Shown here piece after piece: positions 3,087 through 21,462 of a DNA stretch of 36,962 nt (the first letter of the stretch is position 1; every line of letters starts with the position of its first letter). Made by a program: the position numbers and the translations under genes. Source of the DNA: an uncultured Methanosarcinales archaeon (GTDB taxonomy: Archaea; Nanobdellota; Nanobdellia; Woesearchaeales; CAZGIN01); NCBI GenBank assembly GCA_964526585.1, contig CAZGIN010000001.1, positions 1 to 36,962 on the forward strand. The letters are read 5' to 3'. The notes under the pieces are model-generated. The model was not told the DNA's origin and ran no database searches. It saw only the letters and a list, made by a program, of their open reading frames with translations.

Positions 3087-5144
3087 TTATTCAGCCACTA
3101 GTGCAGCTTCCACCTCTTTTACTTTTTCGTTCACTTCGCTTATATTAAAGACTTGGTTTCCTCTTGATCCGTCTCTGTAGATAGTCACTCCTTTGCAGCC
3201 TAGCTTCCATGCTAAAAGGAACGCCTCTTTTATGTCTTCTAGTGTAGCATGATTAGAAAAATTTATTGTTTTTGATATTGCGCTGTCTACATGCTCCTGC
3301 AGCGCTGCCTGCGTCTTCACATGATATTCAGGAGAGATCTCGTGCGCTACTGCAAATACTTTTTTCAGCTCTTCTGGTATGCCTTCTATGGATGCTAAGC
3401 TTCCTCTTTCTGCTACTTTTTTCATCAGCTCTTCTGAGTATATTCCTTCTTCTTTTGCTGCTTCTCTGAAATATTCATTTACATACACGAATTTCTGCCC
3501 TCCTAATACGTTCTTGATGTATCCTAGCCCGAAGTTTGGCTCGCATCCTGAGCTTGTCCCTGATATCATGCTTATTGTTCCTGTAGGCCCTATCGATGTT
3601 ACTGTTGAGTTTCTCATGAATATGTTTTTCCTTACATAGATGCTCTTTGCATAGTCTTTGAAAGGCCCTTTTGTTTCTCCTAATTCTTGTGATTTTTCAT
3701 GCGCTTCTTTCTGTATGAATGCCATTATCTTTTTTGCTGTCTTTATGCCTTCTTCTGAATTGTAAGGTATCCTTAGTTGGTAGAGCATGTCTGCATATCC
3801 CATCAGCCCTAGCCCTATCTTTCTCGTTCTTTTGCTCATCTCTTCAAATTTTTTGGATGGGAACTCAGTCAAGTCAAGCGCGCAGTCTAGTAGTTCAACT
3901 CCTGTCCTTACTGTTGTCTTTAGCCTGTCCCAGTTTATTGTCTTGTTCTTCACCATGTTTGCCAGGTTTACTGATCCCATCACTGCTGACTCATAAGGAA
4001 GTAAAGGAAGTTCTCCGCAAGGGTCTGTCGCTTCGATATCTCCCAATCCTTTCAGCGGATGCATATCATTTATCCTGTCTATAAATAGTAATCCTGGCTC
4101 TCCTGTTTCCCATGCCTGCCTTACTATTAGGTCAAATACTTTTTTTGCGCTTGCTTTTCCTGTCTCTCTTCCTGTGAAAGGATCGGTTAATGGATAGTTC
4201 TCTTCTTTCTCCAGCGCTTCCATGAACTCGTTTGTTATCGCAACCGATATGTTGAAGTTTTGCAGCTCATCCAGGTCTTTCTTTGAGGTTATGAACGCTA
4301 CTATGTCAGGATGGTCTGCTCTTAGCACTCCCATGTTTGCTCCTCTTCCGCTTCCCTGCTTTATCGTCTCTGTCTCAAAATCGATAAGTTTCATGAAGCT
4401 TACAGGCCCTGTTGCATTTCCGTTTGTCATCGTTACTTTGCTTCCTTTTGGCCTTATCGATGAGAAATCAAATCCTGTTCCTGCTCCTGCTTTGTGTATG
4501 AGTGAAGCGTGCTTCACTGATTCAAATATCCCTTTTATGCTGTCAGGGATAGGCAGTACATAGCATGACTGCAGCTGTCGGCTTCTTAGGTTTGCATTTG
4601 CTAGTATCCTTCCTGATGGGATAAAATCCAAGGTGTGCATTATGTTGTGGAAATTGTTCTCTGCATCTGTTGCGTGTATCTCCTTGCTTGCCAATGCTCT
4701 TGCCACCCTTTTGAACATCTGTGCAGGAGTTTCTATTATCTTGCCTGTATCATCTCTTGCAAGATATTTTGCTGCTACTATCCTCACTTGGTTTAGGTCT
4801 AGTTTAGAATCATCTATCAGCCCGTCTAGTATCTCTTTTTTCTGCTCCCTTAGTTTTGATCTTTCCTGCCTGTATAGTATGAATGCTTTTGCTGTGGCTG
4901 CATGTCCTTCTTCTATTAAGACTTTCTCTATAAGGTCTTGTATCTCCTCAACTGCAGGTATGCTGTTTGCGTGGAACTTCTCGTTAAGGACGTCAACGAC
5001 CCTATCTGCTACTTCTTCTGCTGTTTTCCTGTCTGAGCCGCCTGCTGCCTGTGCTGATTTGAACACTGCTTGGACTAGCCTTTCATAGTTGAACAGCACT
5101 ATGCTGCCGTCCCTTTTCCTTACTTTGGTTATCTTGTTTTGCAT
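3087..5144 (-). CDS. nrdJ: class II (adenosylcobalamin-type) ribonucleotide reductase paralog with N-terminal ATP-cone and divergent active-site motif
   Basis: 685 aa. ATP-cone (VRKRDGSIVLFNYERLVQAV...), RNR barrel motifs (GGGTGFDFS-like AGAGTGFDFSSIRPKG, SIGPTGTIS, TIYRDGSR). The canonical [21 protein letters not shown] reads DPCGELPLLPYESAVMGSVNL here. Confidence 0.9.
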   Translation of the reverse strand: MQNKITKVRKRDGSIVLFNYERLVQAVFKSAQAAGGSDRKTAEEVADRVVDVLNEKFHANSIPAVEEIQDLIEKVLIEEGHAATAKAFILYRQERSKLREQKKEILDGLIDDSKLDLNQVRIVAAKYLARDDTGKIIETPAQMFKRVARALASKEIHATDAENNFHNIMHTLDFIPSGRILANANLRSRQLQSCYVLPIPDSIKGIFESVKHASLIHKAGAGTGFDFSSIRPKGSKVTMTNGNATGPVSFMKLIDFETETIKQGSGRGANMGVLRADHPDIVAFITSKKDLDELQNFNISVAITNEFMEALEKEENYPLTDPFTGRETGKASAKKVFDLIVRQAWETGEPGLLFIDRINDMHPLKGLGDIEATDPCGELPLLPYESAVMGSVNLANMVKNKTINWDRLKTTVRTGVELLDCALDLTEFPSKKFEEMSKRTRKIGLGLMGYADMLYQLRIPYNSEEGIKTAKKIMAFIQKEAHEKSQELGETKGPFKDYAKSIYVRKNIFMRNSTVTSIGPTGTISMISGTSSGCEPNFGLGYIKNVLGGQKFVYVNEYFREAAKEEGIYSEELMKKVAERGSLASIEGIPEELKKVFAVAHEISPEYHVKTQAALQEHVDSAISKTINFSNHATLEDIKEAFLLAWKLGCKGVTIYRDGSRGNQVFNISEVNEKVKEVEAALVAE

Positions 5145-5818: not shown

Positions 5819-8452
5819 TTAGTCGCCGCAGCTTTTTACCAGTTTGCCGTCTACCAGCTCTACTTTGCAGGCTCCCCCTACGACTTTTACGTCATCTCTC
5901 TTTTTTGGAGCGTCTTCCTCTGCTTCATGTATTATGTAGCTGCTGTCTTTCTGCATCTCGTGGAATGGTGTTGTCAGCCTCCCATCCGGAGTTATCATGA
6001 CTTCATCCCCTTTGATGATCTTCTCTTCTGCTACCTGCATTACGCGGTATTTCTTCTCTTTTGCTGTTGAAAACTTTGTCTGCTGCTGTGCTACGCTCAG
6101 TATAGGAAATCTGCTCCCGTCTCTGTAAATGGTTATCCCTTTAAGTTTTTTTCTCCATGCCTGCAGGTATACGTCGCTTATCACTTCAGGCTCTATGCTT
6201 TCAGGCAGGTTTACTGTGCTTGAGATGCTGTGGTCGATATATCTTTGGCATGTTGATTGAACTTCCACTCTTTTTTCTGGTTTTATGTAGTGTGCTGTCC
6301 TGAAGAAGTGCTCTGGCAGTACTTTCATCAGCTCTTCTGTTGTCTGCGCCTCATTTACTTTTTCCTGAAGTTCATTCTTGTCTATGTATGCCTGTACTGT
6401 CGGATGGAATATCTTGTATACCTTGTTGCCGAAGCTTTCGGATCTTCTTTGGTAATACAGGGAGAATATGGGCTCTATTCCTCCGCTTACTCCTACATAG
6501 TTCTTGTTTCCGTCTTTGTATCCCAGTATGACATTTGATATTGTTCCTGTTGGCGCTATTGACAGTACTGCTACATTCCTCAGTCCGTATTTTTTGATCA
6601 TCTCTTGTGTTTCTTCATCCAATACTTCCTGGAAGAATGGGTTTTGTGCATATACGTCATAGTTCCATATCGGTATCGGCCCTTTTTCTGCTGCCAGCTG
6701 CGCGCTTGCTTGGTATGATACGTTTGCTATGAAGCTCGCTACCTTGTCCATGGTTGCTATTCCTTCTTCTGAGTCATAGCCTATCCCTAGCTGGTTTAGC
6801 ATGTCTGCTATCCCCATATATCCCAGTCCTATCCTTCTTGTCTCTTTTGCTGCTTTTCTTTGTTTTTCTAATGGGTTTAGCGTCTGGTTCCATGATATGA
6901 CATTATCAAGAAATCTTACTATGTCTTGCACAGAGTTTTTTATCATCTTCCAGTCTATCCTTGCGTCTGGTGTATATCCGTTTACTACGCATCTTGACAG
7001 GTTGATGCTTGCCAGGTTGCATGCTCCCCCATCTTCTAATGGAACTTCTCCGCATGGGTTTGTCGATGCTATTGGCTTTCCCAGATAGTTTGATGGAGAG
7101 TATTTTGTCATTGTGCTCCAGAATATCAGTCCTGGCTCTGCTGTCTTATAGTTTCCTTTCACGAATTCGTTCCAGATGTCTTTTGCTTTCACCAGGTTCT
7201 TCACTGCTCCTGCCTGCGCTGAGCTGTAGTACAGCATGAAGTCTCCTGCGTATTTTATCGCAAGGTCATACTTTTCATTCTCCATTGTAAGCACATAGTC
7301 TCCGAACATGTCTCTGTTGTCCTTGTCATCAAGCTGCTCTTTTGCGACTAGCACATTGTGGTTTTCTGTCAGGAACTCGTTCAGCTTCTCTATGTTGTCA
7401 AAGTCAGCATAAAGTTCATATTCTTCAATATCCTTGCTTGGTATGTTGTGAGCATAGTTTGTCTCTTTTGAGTTATGGTACTGGTCCATTATTGCTTTGT
7501 TCTGCTTTTTGTATACAAGTATCCTGTTTGGGCCGTAGCTTTTCTGCTCTTCTACTGCCTGCATGAACTCATCTGATACCTTGACTGATATGTTTGCAAA
7601 CCTGATCTGGGTGTTGTCTCTTACTTGTTTTTCTATCTCTGCAAGGTGCTTGTCATCAAACATTCCTGACATCTTGCATTGGTGTATTATCTGGCTCGTC
7701 ACCCAGTTGTTCTTCTGCTTCACGTTTATGAAATCGAGGATATCAGGGTGCTTTACATCTATCGTCAGCATCAGTGCCCCTCTTCTTCCTGATTGCCCTA
7801 TCAGCCCTGTTGTCAGTGAGTATATCTCCATGAAGCTTACTGCTCCTGTGCTCTTGTCTGCTGCGTTATGCACTACTGAATTTCTTGGCCTTAGGTTTGA
7901 TATGTCTACTCCTATCCCTCCTCCATAAGAATAGGTGCGGGCGCATTCGTACGCTGTCTGGTATATGCTCTCTATGTTGTCTTCCTCTATCAAGGAGACA
8001 AAGCAGTTCGCTAGTGTCTTTAGCCTGTACAGGTCTCCAGCTCCTGCTATCACTCTTCCTCCTGGCAGGAATATTCCTTCATATAATAGCTTGTAGAACT
8101 TTTCTGAGTATATCTTTTGTTTCTCATGGTTTTCTTCGAGTGATGCTATCGCTGCTGCCAGCCTTGTGAACACATCCTCAGGCCTTTTTTCTATGCAGTT
8201 GCCTTCAAAGTTCTTGAGATAGTACTTCCTTTTGTATATGTCATGCACTAGTTCTGATTCTCCGATATAGTTATTCTCAGGGTGCATAGGCAGCTCCCCT
8301 TTTCTCTGAAGCTCTCTAAGGTGCCTATAGAGGGTCTTGTATGCTGCGATCTTTTCAGGGCTTACCAGCTTCAGCAGCTTTGTCTTATGTTCAAACATGC
8401 TTTCAAATTCAGGAGAAATAATCTTCTCTGCCTGCAGTACTTCTTCACTCAT
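5819..8452 (-). CDS. nrdJ: class II ribonucleotide reductase, no ATP-cone, C-terminal Cys pair
   Basis: Motifs LANCFV, NPCGEVPLEDGGACNLASINL, SIAPTGTIS, TIYRDGSR, and C-terminal tail ...GGACKVELVDGKLVKSCGD. The track ORF opens with GTG at 8461. I prefer ATG at 8452 because GAGGTG lies 6 nt upstream of it. Confidence 0.9.
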   Translation of the reverse strand: MSEEVLQAEKIISPEFESMFEHKTKLLKLVSPEKIAAYKTLYRHLRELQRKGELPMHPENNYIGESELVHDIYKRKYYLKNFEGNCIEKRPEDVFTRLAAAIASLEENHEKQKIYSEKFYKLLYEGIFLPGGRVIAGAGDLYRLKTLANCFVSLIEEDNIESIYQTAYECARTYSYGGGIGVDISNLRPRNSVVHNAADKSTGAVSFMEIYSLTTGLIGQSGRRGALMLTIDVKHPDILDFINVKQKNNWVTSQIIHQCKMSGMFDDKHLAEIEKQVRDNTQIRFANISVKVSDEFMQAVEEQKSYGPNRILVYKKQNKAIMDQYHNSKETNYAHNIPSKDIEEYELYADFDNIEKLNEFLTENHNVLVAKEQLDDKDNRDMFGDYVLTMENEKYDLAIKYAGDFMLYYSSAQAGAVKNLVKAKDIWNEFVKGNYKTAEPGLIFWSTMTKYSPSNYLGKPIASTNPCGEVPLEDGGACNLASINLSRCVVNGYTPDARIDWKMIKNSVQDIVRFLDNVISWNQTLNPLEKQRKAAKETRRIGLGYMGIADMLNQLGIGYDSEEGIATMDKVASFIANVSYQASAQLAAEKGPIPIWNYDVYAQNPFFQEVLDEETQEMIKKYGLRNVAVLSIAPTGTISNVILGYKDGNKNYVGVSGGIEPIFSLYYQRRSESFGNKVYKIFHPTVQAYIDKNELQEKVNEAQTTEELMKVLPEHFFRTAHYIKPEKRVEVQSTCQRYIDHSISSTVNLPESIEPEVISDVYLQAWRKKLKGITIYRDGSRFPILSVAQQQTKFSTAKEKKYRVMQVAEEKIIKGDEVMITPDGRLTTPFHEMQKDSSYIIHEAEEDAPKKRDDVKVVGGACKVELVDGKLVKSCGD

Positions 8453-8503
8453 CCACCACACCTCTTGTCCTCTTATTTTGTTTTTGTCTTGTCTATTGAT
8501 TGA

Positions 8504-15269: not shown

Positions 15270-15545
15270 TTATTTGAGCTTGTCAGCCTGTTTCAGCAAT
15301 GCAGCGTTTGTCTTCTTTATCCTTTTGATCGCTTCAGTTACTGCCTTCCTTGCTTCATTCCCTTGTGTTGTCTCAACCGTAAATTCAGGAACTCCCATCT
15401 GTGGGTGGCTTATATGGTAGCCTGCGGCCTTAACTGCATTGTCTTTGTTCAGCTCATCTCTTAGCGCATTGCATAAGGTATGCGTTGCCCCTTCAATCTC
15501 AAACACTATCTTGTTTTTCTTTTCTTCGATGATCTTGATCTCCAT
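15270..15545 (-). CDS. rpoL: DNA-directed RNA polymerase subunit L (Rpo11)
   Basis: MEIKIIEEKKNKIVFEIEGATHTLCNALRDEL...GYHISHP matches the Rpo11/RpoL pattern. ATG at 15545 is preceded by GGAGG, so I prefer it to the track start 15569. Confidence 0.85.
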   Translation of the reverse strand: MEIKIIEEKKNKIVFEIEGATHTLCNALRDELNKDNAVKAAGYHISHPQMGVPEFTVETTQGNEARKAVTEAIKRIKKTNAALLKQADKLK

Positions 15546-15619
15546 GGTGAACCTCCTCAGCTTTTGCAAGCAGTAGTATATTTAAAAAGCTTTCCTATCT
15601 GTTTGTGCAGCTATGCTGC

Positions 15620-15976
15620 TTAACCTGTTGGCATAACCTTTGCCAATGTAACTAATATTGCTCCTTTTGCTGGCATCCCTTTGTTGTCCGGATCTTTCTT
15701 TACTTGCTCCAGCCATTTTCCATTTTCAAAATATTCAGCTGTTCCTATCATCTTGTATCCTTTCCAGCATTTGTCCCAGACCACCAAGCTCACATTATTG
15801 TTTCTTTTCAAGTTCTCCTTTGTCTGCTTCATATAATTGTCAGTTATCAGTATCTGGTTTTCTGATACTACTTTTACGCATGCGATCCCTATCACATTAG
15901 GCTTATATTCTCCATCTACTGTTGCGAATGCCATGGCATTTTCTTCGATGATCTTCTTTGCTTTTTCATCGATCAT
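15620..15976 (-). CDS. pyridoxamine 5'-phosphate oxidase-like FMN-binding split-barrel protein
   Basis: About 118 aa. ...AMAFATVDGEYKPNVIGIACVKVVSENQILITDNYMKQTKENLKRNNNVSLVVWD is typical of the PNPOx-like family. ATG 15976 is preceded by GAGGTG 5 nt upstream. The track start is GTG 15982. Confidence 0.7.
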   Translation of the reverse strand: MIDEKAKKIIEENAMAFATVDGEYKPNVIGIACVKVVSENQILITDNYMKQTKENLKRNNNVSLVVWDKCWKGYKMIGTAEYFENGKWLEQVKKDPDNKGMPAKGAILVTLAKVMPTG

Positions 15977-16025
15977 TTTCACACCTCATCTTCTGTTCGG
16001 GGCGGGACACTCACGTTTTGTGTGC

Positions 16026-16039
16026 TAGTGGGGAGGTCT
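16026..16039. repeat. 14-nt exact repeat TAGTGGGGAGGTCT, copy 1 (copy 2 at 22808-22821)
   Basis: Read directly. Both copies are preceded by TGTGC and by a looser acact..g..ttgtg similarity of about 30 nt. Confidence 0.8.
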
Positions 16040-16046
16040 CAATGTT

Positions 16047-16111
16047 CATTCCCAGAATGAACATTCCCAAAAATCTCTCGACGACAAAATCTCATTCCCA
16101 GCATATTCCCA
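16047..16111 (+). repeat. ATTCCCA-type motif cluster A (4 copies)
   Basis: cattccca at 16047, 16062 and 16093; tattccca at 16104. Segment 16074-16110 is homologous to 17207-17240 in cluster B. Confidence 0.8.
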
Positions 16112-16120
16112 AAATATTAA

Positions 16121-16777
16121 CTACCTTTTCAGCTTTTCAAAGAAGCACACAACCACATCTATATATTCTACTTTCTTCTTGTGGTGCTCCATTGTTTTCT
16201 TCAGCGGAAACTTGTACTCATTTTTTCTTCTGATATCATATCCAAAATCTTTTGATATCGCTTCAAGGAATCTCATTGTCTCACTTTTGTGGAAGCTGAT
16301 CACATTATCGCTTATACCAAAGGCTTTCTCCAGAAATACCTTGTCAGCATGCTTCTCTTTTGTTCCGAACGGAGGGTTCTCTATTACCAGATCAACCTTT
16401 CCAGCGCTCACTTCACCCGCTAAGTCCTCTACTTTGCAGTTATGGAACTCTGCTTCTCCCATCTCTTCCTTAAGCTCACTTTTCATGTTTTCATAGTATT
16501 TTTTGGCCTCGTTAAGCGCTTCATCGTCTATATCGACGAAATATACCTTGTCTGCTCCCAGCATCAGTGCTCCTATCCCTAATATGCCTGTTCCGCATCC
16601 TAGGTCTGCTACTGTCTTGCCGCTCACCTTTCCTTCCATGTATGCTGTCCATAATACATCTGCTGCTATGTCAGAATTGGTTTGATACTGCTCAACTCTC
16701 ACTTTTGGGGTCTCAAACCCCTTGATTCGTGATAATTCAACCGCTAGAGCCTTTTTTGATGCTATTAGCCTTTCCAT
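16121..16777 (-). CDS. SAM-dependent methyltransferase, METTL5/COG2263-like (predicted RNA m6A methylase)
   Basis: Motif I VADLGCGTGILG and motif IV VIENPPFG. The track start 16789 is TTG. ATG 16777 lies about 28 nt downstream of TATA cttataaatt (16799-16810). Confidence 0.8.
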   Translation of the reverse strand: MERLIASKKALAVELSRIKGFETPKVRVEQYQTNSDIAADVLWTAYMEGKVSGKTVADLGCGTGILGIGALMLGADKVYFVDIDDEALNEAKKYYENMKSELKEEMGEAEFHNCKVEDLAGEVSAGKVDLVIENPPFGTKEKHADKVFLEKAFGISDNVISFHKSETMRFLEAISKDFGYDIRRKNEYKFPLKKTMEHHKKKVEYIDVVVCFFEKLKR

Positions 16778-16889
16778 TTCTCTTCTCAAACCGTCTCTAT
16801 CTTATAAATTCTGCTATTTTAGGGCTCCTAGTCCCATCCTGAGCCATTTTTAGCCATCCTGACAGGCTTTTTTCTTCTATTCCCCTGAT

Positions 16890-16905
16890 ATTAACTCTCA
16901 CTTTT
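16890..16905 (+). repeat. left arm of the 16-bp perfect inverted repeat attaactctcactttt
   Basis: Exact reverse complement of 20200-20215. Confidence 0.9.
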
Positions 16906-17060
16906 GGCCCTTTTTAGGGCCTTTTTCGGCCTTTTTAGCCTCTATTTGGCCTCTCCAGCCCTTTCTTTCCTATTTCCAGCCTTCTTTCAGACCCTCACTT
17001 TTGGCCTAATTTTGGTCTAAATCCTACTTTTTGGTAATTTTTTATCTCCCTTTTTTATCT
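16897..17060 (+). repeat. phased T-tracts alternating with GGCC/AGCC (about 10-12 bp period), including two copies of ctcacttttggcc
   Basis: T4-5 runs at 16902, 16911, 16922, 16932 and 16945, with more following. ctcacttttggcc at 16897-16909 and 16994-17006. Confidence 0.7.
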
Positions 17061-17169
17061 CCTCTTTTGATCTTAAATGATCCTAACCAGATACTGTTGC
17101 CTAACCTTTCTAATGCTTTTTTCAGGCTCCCAAAACCTCTCACTTTTTCTTTGTTCGAGGCGGAATACT

Positions 17170-17453
17170 CATTCCCAACTCATTCCCACACATTCCCAAA
17201 CCTATTTTCTCGTCGACAAAGCTCATTCCCAGCCTATTCCTTGGGAATGTGCCTCAATAACCTTATTCTCCTCGTTATTCTCCTGGTTTTCCTTAGTTTT
17301 TCATTTATCTTTTCATTCCCAATCATTCCCAAAACGTTCCCAGTAACATCCCAAAACGTTCCCAATTTAAGCACCATATTTTTACAAAAAAAGAGGGAAA
17401 TATACAAAATAACATTCCCAAAACGTTCCCAATACATTCCCAGAATATTCCCA
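17170..17453 (+). repeat. ATTCCCA-type motif cluster B (13 direct copies plus 1 inverted), iteron/centromere-like arrays
   Basis: Direct [CT][AG]TTCCCA-type 8-mers start at 17170, 17181, 17191, 17224, 17314, 17324, 17335, 17346, 17357, 17413, 17424, 17435 and 17446 (the 17346 copy, acatccca, is degenerate). An inverted copy is at 17242-17249. Spacing within sub-arrays is 10-11 bp. Confidence 0.85.
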
Positions 17454-17466
17454 AATTTGCACAAAG

Positions 17467-17474
17467 TTTAAATA
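17467..17474 (+). promoter_or_regulatory. TATA box for the ORF starting at 17499
   Basis: tttaaata centred about 28 nt upstream of ATG 17499, directly after the last motif array. Confidence 0.45.
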
Positions 17475-17498
17475 GTTGCTGTGCTTTGGAATGTTAAA

Positions 17499-18353
17499 AT
17501 GTTAGGATTGTTCAAGGATTCAGCAAAGGAAGTCCATCAGAGCCTGTCAAGGCTCGATGCAAGGCTGCAAAAAGCATTTACAACAGTGCGAAGTGATATG
17601 CAAAATCTTTCAGCCTGGATCAGCTATCTGCATCAAAAGATGCAGGCTCAGGATGCACAGTTGCAGCAGGCTTTGCAGGAATCAAGAAATGCATCCACAA
17701 CAGCAAGAAACAATCCTGGTGGCCAAAAAGTGAGCCCTGAATTCATCCAGGCTCAGGTTAGTGCTTCCCCCCAGATGCATTTTCTGCAGAACTCATTGAG
17801 CCATCTGCAGCTGAGGATGAGCGAATTGGCCGACTCGAAAGGGGTTTCCCCTCAGGATTTTCATGCTTTGAGCTCAAAAGTGAGTGATTTGAGGGAGAAG
17901 TTCCATGATTTGGGCTCCCGGGTGAGCCGTATTGACAGCATTGAACATGAGATTGACCATAAGATTGGCCAAAATATGGCTGTTTTTGAGCAAAAAGTGA
18001 GTTCAAGGCTGGATTCTGTTGAGCAAAAAGTAGGAGATGTGTGGCAAAGGCTTGATGATCTTGCGAAAAAACCTTCTGTGAAGGAGACAAGACAGCAGTT
18101 CAAGGAGAAGATAATGAAGAAGATAACAAGGCACTCTAAGGAGTATATCCGCAACATGATTTTGTCTTTGATTAAAAAATACGAGCGGGTTTCAGCCCTT
18201 AATTTGAGGGAGATTATAGTCGAGGAGCAGGCTTTGTGTTCAAAAAGTTCTTTCTATCGTTTCCTTGAAGAGCTTGAAAAATCTGATGAGATCGAGTCTT
18301 TTTCAGAGGGAAAAGAAAAGTTTTTTGTCTACAAGGTGGTGAGAGAGGTGTAA
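17499..18353 (+). CDS. coiled-coil protein with C-terminal winged-helix-like domain
   Basis: About 284 aa from ATG 17499 (track start is GTG 17481). Q/S-rich heptad-like N-terminal two-thirds with repeated (Q/S)KVS units. The C-terminus ...ILSLIKKYERVSALNLREIIVEEQALCSKSSFYRFLEELEKSDEIESF looks like a wHTH. Confidence 0.6.
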   Translation: MLGLFKDSAKEVHQSLSRLDARLQKAFTTVRSDMQNLSAWISYLHQKMQAQDAQLQQALQESRNASTTARNNPGGQKVSPEFIQAQVSASPQMHFLQNSLSHLQLRMSELADSKGVSPQDFHALSSKVSDLREKFHDLGSRVSRIDSIEHEIDHKIGQNMAVFEQKVSSRLDSVEQKVGDVWQRLDDLAKKPSVKETRQQFKEKIMKKITRHSKEYIRNMILSLIKKYERVSALNLREIIVEEQALCSKSSFYRFLEELEKSDEIESFSEGKEKFFVYKVVREV

Positions 18354-18392
18354 ACGATTATCGACGCTGCATTGTAATGTACTGCCGAAAAC

Positions 18393-18400
18393 TATTTAAA
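18393..18400 (+). promoter_or_regulatory. TATA box for the ORF starting at 18455
   Basis: tatttaaa. The predicted TSS falls inside the palindrome 18416-18434. Confidence 0.4.
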
Positions 18401-18415
18401 GCTCTCAACTATCGA

Positions 18416-18434
18416 TTAATTCCTGGGGAATTAA
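18416..18434. promoter_or_regulatory. operator-like palindrome TTAATTCC-TGG-GGAATTAA
   Basis: Perfect 8-bp arms. Its core ATTCC-N3-GGAAT is the palindromic form of the ATTCCCA motif. A sibling, attcc-ttg-ggaat, lies at 17236-17248. Confidence 0.5.
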
Positions 18435-18454
18435 AGGCAAGGTGGTAATACTTT

Positions 18455-19006
18455 ATGGTGTTTGATAACATTAAGAGAGCTCTATCTCACGACGACGTTA
18501 AGGAGCTCGAGTCAAGATTCAAGAGATCTATCAACCAGTTTAAGGAAGAGTTTGAGGATCATCTTGATGCTATTAACCAGAATACCAATGAGATACAGTC
18601 TAACTATGAATTCCTTTGCAATCTCGATTCCAAGATCAACAAGCTTAACGAGAGGATAGACGAGCTTTTCATGATGTTTAAGCATCAGCATGAGGAGCCT
18701 TCTCCTAGCTTTGAGATCCATGCTCTTACTAAGCGTGAAAAAGAAGTGTTTATGGCATTATACGCTTTAGAAGAAGAGCTTGATAAGGTATCATATCTTG
18801 ATCTTGCCAGGCGTTTAGGTATGACTGTTGAGCTTGTCCAGTCTTACATATCCAATCTCGTCGACAAAGGCATCCCTCTTCTTAAGAGGTACATCAACAA
18901 CAACGCTTATATCAGGATCGATCCTGCTTTCAAGTCTGTCCAGGCTAAGAAGAATTTCTTGGAGATGAACGAGCAGATTTCTGAGAAAGTCATATCCTAC
19001 GAATAG
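18455..19006 (+). CDS. coiled-coil protein with C-terminal HTH (LuxR/sigma-70 region 4-like)
   Basis: 183 aa. AGGTGG lies 9 nt upstream of the ATG. N-terminal helical half. The C-terminal LTKREKEVFMALYALEEELDKVSYLDLARRLGMTVELVQSYISNLVDKG resembles an HTH. Confidence 0.65.
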   Translation: MVFDNIKRALSHDDVKELESRFKRSINQFKEEFEDHLDAINQNTNEIQSNYEFLCNLDSKINKLNERIDELFMMFKHQHEEPSPSFEIHALTKREKEVFMALYALEEELDKVSYLDLARRLGMTVELVQSYISNLVDKGIPLLKRYINNNAYIRIDPAFKSVQAKKNFLEMNEQISEKVISYE

Positions 19007-19075
19007 TGTCCTGATTAAAACATTTAGGCGTTAATTGCATTTTTTAGTCGAGAATCAGCAAATTATTTATACTCA

Positions 19076-19123
19076 TTCCGATAAGGCAGCATATGCATTC
19101 CGGGAAGGGAGTGCTTATCGGAA
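19076..19123 (+). promoter_or_regulatory. 10-bp perfect inverted repeat ttccgataag / cttatcggaa in the recombinase leader
   Basis: Arms at 19076-19085 and 19114-19123, with a 28-nt spacer, ending 10 nt before ATG 19133. Two cattccg motifs (19074, 19096) lie in or near it. Confidence 0.45.
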
Positions 19124-19132
19124 GGGCTAAAG

Positions 19133-19951
19133 ATGCAGGATTTTGAGTTTTCAGGGCCTGAAAGGCGAAAGTCGACCAAAGCAGCGATCTACATTCGAGT
19201 CTCCACCGAAGAACAGGCCAAAGAAGGCATATCCATGAAAGCTCAGGAAGAGCGCTGCAGGGCTTTTTGCATCGCCCGAGGTTGGGATGTCTTCAAGATC
19301 TACAAAGATCCTGGTTTTTCTGCAAAGAATCTTTCAAGGCCTGCTATGAAGCGCGTTCTTCAGGATGCTAAGGACAAGAAATTTAGAGTGCTGGTTGTCT
19401 ACAAGTTTGACAGGTTTTCAAGAAACCTTAAGGACCTTCTTTTCACTTTGGAGGATCTTAGGAAGCTTGCGATCAACTTCACTTCAGTTACTGAGCAGAT
19501 CGATACCACAACTGCTATGGGCAAGGCTTTCTTCAGGATAATAGGCGTTTTTGCTGAGCTTGAGCGTGATGTGCTAAAAGAGCGTGTCGATATGGCTTTT
19601 GCTAAGAAGATCATGTCCGGAGAGGCTCTTAACAGAGCTCCTTTTGGTTATGCTTATGATAAGGGCAGATTAGTTCCAGATGTCGAAAAAGCTCCTCTTG
19701 TGCAGCAGATTTTTGAGATGAAAGCTGACGGCATCCATTACAAAGACATCGCTCAGAATGCAAATTTGGCTGTCTCATCGCTCTTTGATATGCTTCGTAA
19801 TCCGGTCTATCTTGGCAAGATAAAATATCGAGGCAGGCTTTACAATGGTTTGCACAAAGCGATCATCTCTGAGGATCTGTTCAAGAAGGTCAATCCCCAG
19901 TTTGAGATTCCCGACGATATCGGCTCTTTTTCTGCCAAAGGCCAGAAGTAA
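19133..19951 (+). CDS. serine recombinase (resolvase catalytic domain plus recombinase domain; short form)
   Basis: 272 aa. AAIYIRVSTEEQ carries the catalytic Ser. Also VVYKFDRFSRN and GVFAELERD. Then RAPFGYAYDKGRLVPDVEKAPLVQQIFEM...LRNPVYLGKIKY is typical of the 'recombinase' domain of large serine recombinases. No zinc-ribbon or coiled-coil tail. Confidence 0.9.
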   Translation: MQDFEFSGPERRKSTKAAIYIRVSTEEQAKEGISMKAQEERCRAFCIARGWDVFKIYKDPGFSAKNLSRPAMKRVLQDAKDKKFRVLVVYKFDRFSRNLKDLLFTLEDLRKLAINFTSVTEQIDTTTAMGKAFFRIIGVFAELERDVLKERVDMAFAKKIMSGEALNRAPFGYAYDKGRLVPDVEKAPLVQQIFEMKADGIHYKDIAQNANLAVSSLFDMLRNPVYLGKIKYRGRLYNGLHKAIISEDLFKKVNPQFEIPDDIGSFSAKGQK

Positions 19952-20034
19952 TTTAACCTAATTTTAGCGACTAAAACTTTCAATCTCTTCATAAAAAATC
20001 TAATCTCAAAATTATCAAAATTTTTAATCAGTTC

Positions 20035-20046
20035 TAACTCTCACTT
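20035..20046 (+). repeat. third copy of the repeat core taactctcactt (direct relative to 16892-16903)
   Basis: 12-nt exact match. Inverted relative to 20202-20213. Confidence 0.8.
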
Positions 20047-20199
20047 ATCAAAATATTTCAAAATCTTCTATATAGAAAATAATATTATAAAATATACTTA
20101 ATATAATATATAAGACAAAATAACTATTATACTATACAATAAACTAGCTACTTTAAAATATATATTAAACTATCTACAAATACCAAATTTTTTTTACTG
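20047..20199. other. extreme AT tract (candidate DNA unwinding element)
   Basis: About 153 bp with roughly 15% G+C by hand count, flanked by inverted 12-mers. No ORF. Confidence 0.4.
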
Positions 20200-20215
20200 A
20201 AAAGTGAGAGTTAAT
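20200..20215 (-). repeat. right arm of the 16-bp perfect inverted repeat (aaaagtgagagttaat)
   Basis: Exact reverse complement of 16890-16905. Confidence 0.9.
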
Positions 20216-20415
20216 TTTTACAGCCCTCAAAAAGCGCAGAATTGCACAAAAAGTGTACAAAAAGCTTCATTTCAGCAGATCTTGTAGAAATATGTGAACT
20301 CCCAATTGGGCACTATGTAATTCACCCCCCGAAAGTGAGTGTAAATGCTTTTCTCTCGTCGACATCCAAAAAAATTCGAATATTTTATTAATTGTTAAAT
20401 TTAGGATACTGAAAA

Positions 20416-21462
20416 GTGAAGAAAGCGACTCTTTTCAGGAAGCTTGAAGATAAAAAAGTGCAGTGTTTGGCATGCAGCCATTATTGTACTATCCTTCCTG
20501 GATATGCTGGCATATGTGGAGTTCGCCAAAACATAAAAGGAGAATTATACCTTCTTGTTTATGGAAAGCCAACCATAAGTGTTGATCCTGTCGAGAAGAA
20601 ACCTTTATTTCATTTCCTTCCTGGAAAAAGGGTGTTTTCTATTGGAACTGTAGGCTGTAATTTTGGATGCAAGTTCTGCCAGAACTGGGCTTTGTCTCAG
20701 TGCACTCGAAATACTGGCTTGAAAGGAGAAGAGCTTACTAGAAATGTTGAGTCTCTCACAGCTGATATGGACAAGTGGCCTCCTCAGAAGATCGTGAATT
20801 TCTGCATCAAATATCATATTCCTATGATAGCCTATACTTATAACGAGCCTGCTATCTTCCATGAATATGCTTATGATACTGCTGTCCTAGCAAAGAAGAA
20901 AGGGATAAAAAATATCTATGTCAGCAACGGCTTTGAGTCAAAAGAGGCTTTAGACAAGTTAAAGGATGTGATTGATGCTTTCAACATCGATTTAAAATCT
21001 TCCAGCGCCGAATTTTACAAGAAGGTCTGCTTCGGAAGAATTGAGCCTGTCAAGGAGAACATAAAGCGCATATTTGATATGAAAAAATGGATCGAGATAA
21101 CCACTCTAGTGATTCCTGGAAAGAATGATTCTGATAAGGAATTGAAGCAGATCGCTGAGTTTATCAAGAATATCTCTCCTAACATACCTTGGCATGTAAC
21201 TGCATTCCATCCTTGCTATAACATGCTTGATGTTCCTTCTACTCCTCCTGAAACATTGTTCAGGGCTTACAAGATCGGGAAAAAAGCAGGCTTGAATTAT
21301 GTCTATGTAGGGAACATATTGGATAGTGACAAGGAGTATACTTTTTGTCCTAAGTGCAAGAAGGCAGTTATCGAGAGATTTGGCTTGACTCTTAGCAAGA
21401 ACAGTCTAAAGGACGGCAGATGTCCTCATTGTAAAGCTAAGGTCGATGGTGTCTGGAAATGA
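20416..21462 (+). CDS. amrS: AmmeMemoRadiSam system radical SAM enzyme
   Basis: 348 aa, GTG start. N-terminal Cys cluster CLACSHYC...GICGVR, radical-SAM CNFGCKFCQNW, C-terminal CPKC...CPHC. Followed by Memo and AMMECR1 genes. Confidence 0.85.
   Translation: MKKATLFRKLEDKKVQCLACSHYCTILPGYAGICGVRQNIKGELYLLVYGKPTISVDPVEKKPLFHFLPGKRVFSIGTVGCNFGCKFCQNWALSQCTRNTGLKGEELTRNVESLTADMDKWPPQKIVNFCIKYHIPMIAYTYNEPAIFHEYAYDTAVLAKKKGIKNIYVSNGFESKEALDKLKDVIDAFNIDLKSSSAEFYKKVCFGRIEPVKENIKRIFDMKKWIEITTLVIPGKNDSDKELKQIAEFIKNISPNIPWHVTAFHPCYNMLDVPSTPPETLFRAYKIGKKAGLNYVYVGNILDSDKEYTFCPKCKKAVIERFGLTLSKNSLKDGRCPHCKAKVDGVWK

Follow-up and report, generated by a model that had tools for sequence, protein, structure and literature searches.

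A putative resolution-type recombinase module at a conserved chromosomal locus of Woesearchaeales-type archaea

We analysed a 36,962-nucleotide stretch (hereafter the window) of contig CAZGIN010000001.1, from an uncultured archaeon placed in Woesearchaeales, and within it the locus that surrounds a small serine recombinase gene. A preliminary description, made from the letters of the DNA, had taken positions 16890 to 20215 for a 3.3-kb recombinase cassette bounded by a 16-bp inverted repeat on which the enzyme would act. Comparison with related loci leads us to regard the region as a conserved chromosomal locus of Woesearchaeales-type DPANN archaea and not as a mobile cassette. Its core consists of the recombinase gene and one 26-bp dyad directly upstream. 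The slot that holds this pair is occupied by tyrosine recombinases in several relatives, and it is accompanied by two genes for coiled-coil proteins with a winged helix-turn-helix (wHTH), cc290 and cc183, by arrays of a 13-bp polar motif, by ATTCCCA iterons and by an AT-rich palindrome, pal. We propose, with confidence that is evenly balanced, that the locus is a resolution-type recombinase-plus-site module, analogous to Xer/dif and organised by the two coiled-coil winged-helix proteins. The related loci read for comparison bear labels in the style of L001 to L204; each was followed for about 8–10 kb of flank, and the scan for dyads covered loci of 10–17 kb.

A small serine recombinase with one dyad site upstream

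The recombinase gene (19133–19951, +) encodes 272 aa and combines a Resolvase domain (PF00239, E = 2.5e-40, residues 17–163) with a Recombinase domain (PF07508, E = 2.9e-11, residues 185–255); no zinc ribbon, coiled coil or other further Pfam domain was found in the protein. R22, S24, D93, R94 and R97 are invariant across 24 homologues, which places the protein in the serine recombinase superfamily, and judging from these residues the enzyme looks catalytically intact. The closest solved structure is the catalytic domain of TP901-1 integrase (E = 5e-31). About 2000 homologues of 243–297 aa, with ~55–65% identity, occur in Woese-, Pace- and Nanoarchaeota, where they carry only the name "recombinase family protein".

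Directly upstream lies a putative control and recombination region (19066–19123, +). It comprises a TATA-like hexamer (TTTATA, 19066–19071), an extra half-site that we call h1 (TTCCGATAAGGC, 19076–19087), which is a candidate accessory site, and a 26-bp dyad of 12-2-12 layout (TTCCGGGAAGGG-AG-TGCTTATCGGAA, 19098–19123) that ends 9 bp before the ATG. L004 repeats this layout of dyad, extra half-site and hexamer, and the hix and gix sites are also of the 12-2-12 kind. Across loci the dyad consensus is TTCCAATAAGGG-AA-CCCTTATTGGAA, that is, two 12-bp half-sites around a 2-bp centre. In a position-weight scan of 49 recombinase loci, TTCCNNTAAGGG-(AA/TT)-CCCTTANNGGAA occurred exactly once per locus and always 10–110 bp upstream of the recombinase start codon; within every locus read, this single dyad adjoins the recombinase gene. 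The same scan found the dyad neither in tyrosine-type loci nor in 30 shuffles. On sequence grounds we consider it a candidate crossover site and auto-operator, and a far better one than the 16-mers.

According to the preliminary description, the enzyme should invert the whole 3.3 kb, invert a 155-bp AT segment, or excise a 3.1-kb circle. None of these outcomes is supported, given a better candidate site that is present in a single copy. A second inverted dyad that would complete a Hin/Gin-type pair was absent from the window and from the 49 loci in the position-weight scan. Nor does the locus hold an attL/attR pair; its sole symmetric dyad lies upstream of the gene, and no prophage genes are nearby. 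A single dyad per locus fits resolution between sister copies, and not inversion or excision within one chromosome.

The centre of the dyad was also compared with gene orientation. On the strand that carries the sense of the recombinase gene, seven of eight loci of the direct type have AA as the central dinucleotide (AG in the window), and four of five of the inverted type have TT (window 19110–19111; L200 6595; L201 742; L009, L025, L027 and L002). Half-sites keep their identity relative to the gene, while the polarity of the dinucleotide tends to stay fixed relative to the chromosome. Inversion by the recombinase was considered as the cause of flipped genes and rejected, since it fails to predict this AA/TT pattern; inversion of the module does not predict it either.

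Some 25 Pace-type loci have, after the serine recombinase gene, one or two open reading frames (ORFs) of ~180 aa with an N-terminal zinc ribbon and a 'Recombinase' domain but no catalytic domain (for instance L001 6740–7291 and 8666–9208, and L032 9348–9893). These proteins could be accessory binders of the same half-sites.

Serine and tyrosine recombinases exchange in the same slot

The window encodes no tyrosine recombinase. Other occupants of the slot came to light in a metagenome scan with the composite of pal and polar motif as probe, which is blind to recombinase type and returned 31 loci; the tyrosine-type loci in this set were hence found without selection for the type of enzyme. Occupants were assigned only in loci that cover the inside of the slot, between cc183 and pal. 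A XerA-like tyrosine recombinase of 275–292 aa, with Phage_integrase and SAM-like domains, is present in L169, L170, L177, L180 and L188, and a short tyrosine integrase of 217–223 aa in L192 and L195. Contexts reached through cc183 homologues added a short integrase (L197) and a XerA-like enzyme (L198), besides two contexts without a recombinase. Through Xer homologues, two contexts were informative, and in both (L202 and L204) the XerA-like gene lies in the slot.

Each type of enzyme has a site of its own. Xer genes carry a dif-like TCGTATAA-N6-TTATACGA 5–60 bp upstream (L170, L180, L188, L203 and L204). The most direct view of an exchange comes from L180 and L192, whose DNA is 94–96% identical except for the recombinase gene and about 110 bp upstream of it, where Xer with its dif-like site is swapped for the short integrase. 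We read this difference as a recent replacement of the recombinase. Tyrosine-type loci also interleave with serine-type ones: L195 is closest to L004 (75% identity in cc183) and L169 to L011 (73%). Relatives hold a XerA-like gene and a dif-like site in the same slot, and the most likely origin of the serine module is therefore non-orthologous replacement of Xer/dif.

The pair L180 and L192 differs in one further respect. An element of ~187 bp whose termini form the inverted repeat GCAAAAAACAACAACATGGGT...ACCCATGTTGTTTTTTGC (L180 2938–3120; L192 3998–4184, inverted) sits at different places and in different orientations in these two near-identical strains, and looks like a miniature inverted-repeat transposable element or a small RNA gene.

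The locus lies in a conserved chromosomal neighbourhood

The two coiled-coil/wHTH genes and the serine recombinase named in the preliminary description were all recovered. In independent genomes the order is methyltransferase (−), cc290 (+), cc183 (+), recombinase and, further on, PAC2, and RpoL, UppS and a DHH protein lie past the methyltransferase in related genomes. The block of cc290, cc183 and recombinase is found between methyltransferase–RpoL–UppS and PAC2 in L002, L004, L006, L011, L025, L052, L200 and L201. Identity to the window is 44–62% for the recombinase, 34–49% for cc183 and 28–50% for cc290, with 45–52% for the methyltransferase, 50–68% for UppS and 50–63% for PAC2. Shared synteny, together with divergence comparable to that of the flanking genes, argues for vertical descent and not for recent insertion.

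The remainder of the window is ordinary archaeal chromosome, with genes for ribonucleotide reductase, ThyA, UppS, RpoL, Memo/AMMECR1, PAC2, L11, Spt5 and FtsZ. G+C content (GC) is 0.36–0.47 inside the proposed cassette and 0.35–0.46 outside it; composition is even across the window, and the GC profile showed no compositional island in it. There are no tRNA genes in the window and no att duplication at the locus, and known RNA families gave no match at E <= 1 within 15500–21000. Among 2.9 million viral contigs, none encoded a relative with more than 42% identity; the best were small integrases located at the termini of prophage contigs, and their identity (37–40%) equals that of matches in Bacillota genomes. 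The idea of an integrated mini-plasmid or provirus consequently loses its footing, given synteny in many genomes, even GC, no tRNA or att duplication, and no Rep or structural families. A replicon made of initiator and iterons fares no better, as neither cc290 nor cc183 matches a Rep family in Pfam and the ATTCCCA iterons are conserved in chromosomal loci.

Next to the slot, cc290 (17481–18353, +) encodes 290 aa with a coiled coil and a C-terminal wHTH-like region that has weak Pfam wHTH matches only. It is a conserved partner gene, found at the same position in L002, L004, L006, L011, L025, L170, L180, L188, L195 and L200. The product of cc183 (18455–19006, +; 183 aa) also joins a coiled coil to a wHTH: its AlphaFold2 model (mean predicted local distance difference test score, pLDDT, 89) consists of a single long helix of 67 residues (12–78) followed by a winged helix (93–155). 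A Foldseek search with this model returned generic MarR/ArsR winged-helix matches only and no specific structural relative. The 78 homologues of cc183 are all unnamed, and the family is so far confined to these archaea. The two genes were considered as paralogues, and the idea was rejected, as no relationship is detectable by BLASTP. On the other side of cc290 lies the host gene of part of the motif array described below, a METTL5-like methyltransferase (16121–16789, −; Pfam MTS, E = 1.1e-13).

Elsewhere in the window, two ORFs for ribonucleotide reductase large subunits stand in tandem (3087–5144, 685 aa; 5819–8461, 880 aa), near a thymidylate synthase gene (1252–2118). In the 880-aa ORF the match to the reductase barrel is split into two stretches, possibly by an insertion such as an intein.

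A polar motif layer surrounds the slot

The inverted repeat of the preliminary description exists as claimed. ATTAACTCTCACTTTT at 16890–16905 (+) has its exact reverse complement at 20200–20215, and the third, 12-nt copy, TAACTCTCACTT, is present at 20035–20046 in direct orientation to the left arm; this inverted geometry is conserved among related loci. The phased T-tracts, repeat arrays and AT tract listed with it were likewise confirmed, and the arrays look functional. What did not stand is the use of the 16-mers as cassette boundaries. They are not unique, with a 15/15 direct copy of the left arm (AACTCTCACTTTTGG) at 16694–16708 in the methyltransferase ORF, and they turn out to be two consensus copies of a 13-bp asymmetric polar motif, (T/A)AAC-N-CTCACTTTT. 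This motif has six matches at <=3 mismatches, compared with 1.06 expected, and 0 of 100 shuffles reach six. Its core, CTCACTTT, has 12 copies in the window versus 2.3 expected, nearly all inside 16280–20340.

The left array (16694–17147, +) points rightward throughout, with copies at 16694–16706, 16893–16905 (the left arm), 16990–17002 and 17135–17147, and is set within phased T-tracts (16905–17070). Leftward copies lie on the right (20200–20346, −), namely F at 20200–20215 (the right arm) and G at 20329–20346. Copy E (20036–20048, +) points rightward and forms the first part of a composite element with pal (20035–20085). Besides the arms, E and the copy at 16694, the motif stands at 16280, 16475, 16990, 17135 and 20331 (−). 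A profile of 95 copies gave a 13-bp asymmetric core with no inverted (dyad) partner, flanked on either side by T-tracts with a period of about 11 bp.

The motif is kept at the DNA level in almost all related loci, in arrays of 3–7 copies that include some within a housekeeping coding sequence. Orientations were counted in 49 related Woese- and Pacearchaeal loci, each oriented with cc183 on the + strand. Left of the recombinase there were 150 (+) versus 13 (−) copies and right of it 10 (+) versus 37 (−), so that 37 of 47 right-hand copies point leftward; Fisher's test on the opposed orientation gives p = 4e-21, a value that overstates independence, as the loci are phylogenetically related. Inward-pointing arrays occur in all three slot types, that is, with serine, Xer-like and short integrase genes. 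Asymmetric single motifs that lack a dyad partner, stand in arrays of 3–7, reach into housekeeping coding sequence and surround tyrosine enzymes in the same way are poor crossover sites for a serine recombinase, the function first ascribed to the 16-mers.

Part of the left array overlaps the methyltransferase gene. Its ORF holds three antisense cores (16280–16287, 16475–16482 and 16698–16705), which occupy its 5' two-thirds in different reading frames and encode HKSET, MKSEL and PKVRVE. Motif copies inside the gene also occur in L002, L004, L006, L011, L025, L170, L188, L197, L200, L201 and L204, and in Woese-type genomes the left array extends into the 5' half of the methyltransferase coding sequence, antisense and in mixed frames. 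Since the copies fall in different reading frames, selection appears to act on the DNA itself, and the pattern indicates a DNA-level signal superimposed on the methyltransferase coding sequence in every Woese-type relative.

The ATTCCCA iterons form an array of 10–12 copies (17170–17453, +) directly upstream of cc290, a position that they always take in Woese-type loci, and they are probably an operator for one of the two wHTH proteins. Four more (16047–16111, +) lie past the 3' end of the methyltransferase gene, on its far side and outside the proposed cassette. As both iterons and polar motif copies extend beyond 16890–20215, the 3.3-kb 'cassette' is an arbitrary cut through a larger structured locus.

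The palindrome pal (20058–20085, +) is AT-rich, has an 11-6-11 layout (TCAAAATCTTC-TATATA-GAAAATAATAT) and begins 9 bp after copy E. Across loci its consensus is TAATTATTTTC-NATATN-GAAAATAATTA, and it adjoins an inward-pointing copy of the polar motif. In the window the right arm F stands 114 bp beyond pal, and the interval is an extreme AT tract (20086–20199), with an equivalent in L051; GC falls to 0.28 in 20001–20500. The full composite of motif, pal and motif occurs in L170, L171, L186 and L187, spanning about 60 bp as a whole in L170 and L171, and a version with pal and one (−) motif in L004 and L011. Many loci have two pal copies, one just after cc183 (pal_a) and the other beside the right-hand motif (pal_b); the window has the right-hand one only. 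The TTTCAATATTGAAA palindrome was considered as a recombinase crossover site or dif and dropped, because a canonical dif-like site belongs to the Xer genes and a dyad to the serine genes.

Contigs L168, L171, L186, L187, L182, L190 and L196, which come from several metagenome assemblies, end within about 0.3–1.1 kb of the composite of pal and motif, on its inner side. These ends share no common point and may reflect chance or population heterogeneity in the slot. Pace-type loci have arrays of a AAACAGCTGTTT palindrome both before the recombinase, in the interval from the cc183 homologue, and behind it (L001 3149–3163 and 7236–7250; L020 193–775 and 2920–2939; also L040, L042, L060 and L062), which may be the Pace-type counterpart of pal.

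Opposed arrays, iterons and pal are present around tyrosine recombinases as around serine ones. Because they accompany all three types of enzyme, the polar motif layer is separate from the recombinase and independent of its type. In L199, a cc183 context with readable DNA and no recombinase, none of the motifs was found.

Proposed function of the locus

Our proposal has two parts, a recombinase module and the proteins that would organise it. The dyad at 19098–19123 and the small recombinase gene directly downstream would form a self-contained core. With one site per chromosome, as proposed, the enzyme would find a partner for that site only where a second copy exists, as in a chromosome dimer or on sister chromosomes. 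As the dyad stands between TATA box and start codon, auto-repression is expected, and the recombinase would repress its own promoter as in multimer-resolution systems and Xer/dif. Because the module stands where relatives have Xer/dif, it probably does the same job, in which case the serine enzyme would resolve chromosome dimers in place of XerA. For their part, cc290 and cc183 would bind the polar motif (AACNCTCACTTTT) arrays, the ATTCCCA iterons and pal and organise the locus, either by serving synapsis as accessory architecture or by forming a boundary or barrier similar to the DNA around dif in Thermococcus. The anatomy of the locus, its conservation, its single dyad and the change of recombinase type are observed; resolution as the reaction, the pairing of proteins with motifs and the organising role of the arrays are what we infer.

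A broader formulation, more tentative and with clearly less than an even chance of being right, is that Woese- and Pacearchaeales DPANN archaea have a dedicated chromosome-resolution locus whose resolvase can be exchanged between unrelated classes (serine with a 12-2-12 site, XerA/dif and short tyrosine integrase). Inward 13-bp arrays, palindrome and iterons would frame it and be read by the two clade-specific coiled-coil wHTH proteins as a polar organiser, which might be a synapsis guide, an SMC boundary or a fork barrier.

Several observations weigh against the resolution proposal. The slot between the two pal copies is variable, with toxin-antitoxin, Fic, HNH and DUF192 genes, and looks island-like. 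The nearest relatives of the recombinase outside the clade are ~250-aa prophage integrases of Bacillota. Among L002, L004, L006 and L011 the recombinase is 82–87% identical and its neighbours 57–76%, a difference that very strong constraint could explain, as could recent horizontal exchange of the module. The window dyad is imperfect, its right half scoring 8 bits versus 17.6 for the left, with AG at the centre. Two cc183 homologues have no recombinase nearby, and in L014 a Xer-like gene and the serine recombinase gene lie 7 kb apart. Finally, GC skew does not change sign at the locus in a regression over 46 loci, so a terminus position is not supported; a sign change is absent from the window as well.

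Alternative explanations

The first three of these observations bear on the alternative that we take most seriously, although we consider it unlikely, namely that the slot is an integration hotspot or small island. The recombinases would then be integrases of mostly decayed elements, the pal copies a duplicated att site, and the window a solitary remnant integrase. In agreement with this, the variable part is enclosed by pal_a and pal_b in L002, L006, L011, L200, L169, L170, L188 and L195, cargo includes ParE, VapC-like, Fic and HNH genes, recombinase type and orientation change between close relatives, and both the kinship to prophage integrases and the conservation of the recombinase above that of its flanks would follow. 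However, the site of each recombinase is complete, symmetric and directly upstream, unlike hybrid att sites, which would mark the two ends of an element, and pal is unlike the own site of either recombinase. The slot carries no cargo in the window or in L051, no such element was found in viral contigs, and the two recombinase families, which have about 2000 and about 2900 homologues, are not only large but also highly conserved between orders.

A DNA inversion switch, in which the pal-flanked segment or the recombinase gene flips in Hin/Gin fashion and alters the expression of neighbours, seems to us rather improbable. It would account for the recombinase gene being inverted relative to cc183 in L002, L009, L025, L027 and L201, where flanks remain syntenic and where the inverted state is polyphyletic on a neighbour-joining tree of recombinases. 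The gene's 3' end abuts pal_a in L002, L025 and L201 and pal_b in the window and L051, and a 12-2-12 site with AA centre has the layout of hix and gix. Such a switch is difficult to reconcile with one dyad per locus and with the single pal of the window. Xer and short integrase genes are likewise found in both orientations, so flipping is not peculiar to the serine enzyme. Orientation variants were absent among near-identical contigs, both in the 31-locus metagenome scan and among L004, L005 and L007, which share one arrangement, and what adjoins the slot is not conserved, which leaves the switch without an obvious regulated target.

We give little credence to a replication origin or terminus fork trap, with polar motifs resembling origin recognition boxes or Ter sites, wHTH proteins as readers and the AT tract as an unwinding element. 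Its attractions are the opposed asymmetric arrays within phased T-tracts, the extreme AT tract beside an inverted motif pair, large non-coding regions, the association with modules of the dimer-resolution type, and the parallel of Bacillus subtilis, whose rtp gene adjoins its opposed Ter sites. Against it, no Orc1/Cdc6 gene was seen in the window or the annotated loci, the skew shows no sign change in either the window or the 46-locus regression, the polar motif is confined to the locus and not genome-wide, and the opposed arrays stand 3–7 kb apart with genes between them.

The original model, in which the recombinase acts on the 16-mers and inverts 16890–20215 or the 155-bp AT segment, or excises a 3.1-kb mini-plasmid or provirus circle, is hardly tenable: the perfect inverted repeat with its third, direct copy, the iteron-like arrays and AT tract, and the opposed copies around the recombinase in many genomes do invite it, but the motif lacks dyad symmetry, is repeated many times, in part within the coding sequence of the methyltransferase, surrounds tyrosine recombinases just as it does serine ones and, in the ~60-bp unit of L170 and L171, looks like a composite for binding rather than a segment that could invert, while the genes are syntenic chromosomal genes for which no Rep family and no viral or plasmid relatives were found.

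Relation to known systems and significance

The resolution module that we favour consists of components of known kinds, namely serine recombinase, dyad site, Xer/dif and wHTH proteins; their combination, the exchange of serine and tyrosine enzymes at a chromosomal slot and the opposed polar arrays appear to be new. The haloarchaeal xerA operon is preceded by a dif-like element (PMC11840125), and single-recombinase Xer/dif systems in general (XerS/difSL of streptococci, XerH/difH of Helicobacter and haloarchaeal xerA) place one gene beside one dyad site, as here (PMC11840125, PMC5357621). Relatives of this organism carry a Xer and dif-like module in the very same slot. The window is positionally equivalent to these Xer/dif loci but not a member, being without a tyrosine recombinase: its enzyme is of the serine class, its site is 12-2-12 and not 11-6-11, and dimer resolution is a proposal here, whereas a terminus position is not supported.

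Serine resolvases (Tn3/gamma-delta TnpR-res, RK2 ParA, Sin and beta recombinase) share a gene directly downstream of a site that overlaps the promoter, and h1 and the nearby candidate protein-binding arrays could act as accessory sites in the same sense and confine the reaction to sites in direct repeat. In contrast to them, the present enzyme has the C-terminal 'Recombinase' domain of large serine recombinases in place of a small HTH and a catalytic domain nearest that of TP901-1 integrase, there is no res-like set of three dimer sites, and the replicon is a cellular chromosome. Tn3-family transposons carry interchangeable modules (TnpR/res, TnpI/IRS and TnpS-TnpT/rst), so that serine and tyrosine recombinases with their own sites swap at one position in related backbones, much as in this slot; here the backbone is a conserved chromosomal neighbourhood, with no transposase or transposon ends.

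With the invertases Hin, Gin, Cin and Pin, the locus has in common a 26-bp site made of 12-bp half-sites and a 2-bp AA centre, and a gene orientation that varies between genomes; in the Hin system, the segment that inverts contains the recombinase gene. Hin and Gin are ~190 aa with HTH_7 and use an enhancer bound by Fis, whereas the enzyme described here has a PF07508 C-terminus, no HTH_7 and a single site with no second, inverted one, and tyrosine recombinase genes flip at this locus as well. Large serine recombinases (TP901-1, Bxb1 and phiC31) have the same order of catalytic domain and PF07508 'Recombinase' domain, but reach 450–700 aa as opposed to 245–272; here zinc ribbon and coiled coil, attL/attR and prophage are all lacking.

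For the organising layer, the nearest parallel is an analogy. In Thermococcus kodakarensis, intergenic DNA surrounding dif and a nucleoid protein, and not XerA, form an SMC boundary (PMC11840125), with TrmBL2 on a 1.9-kb intergenic region. In both cases a recombination site is embedded in large structured non-coding DNA, and DNA-binding proteins unrelated to the recombinase may, by analogy, organise the chromosome here. The present locus differs in having discrete motifs in opposed arrays and two coiled-coil wHTH proteins of its own. According to a 2021 review (PMC8371274), transposons are the only known source of archaeal serine recombinases, and these are uninvestigated. The preliminary description also stated that no recombinase-plus-iteron module of the kind was known to its author from archaea of this type, and the literature that we searched on serine recombinases, XerA and origins in DPANN contains no description of this locus.

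One lesson of the comparison is that a recombinase gene enclosed by a perfect inverted repeat does not suffice for the diagnosis of a mobile or invertible cassette. If the resolution reading is right, the serine enzyme with its 12-2-12 site would be the first serine-family dimer resolvase of a cellular chromosome, and a mechanistically unrelated recombinase could take over dimer resolution from XerA. A compact serine recombinase (about 250 aa) with a simple 26-bp site would also be a possible tool. Whatever the recombinase does, the opposed arrays and the two predicted coiled-coil DNA-binding proteins make up a previously undescribed DNA–protein system, and the locus would, if the proposal holds, offer a testable landmark of chromosome organisation for a whole phylum of uncultured archaea.

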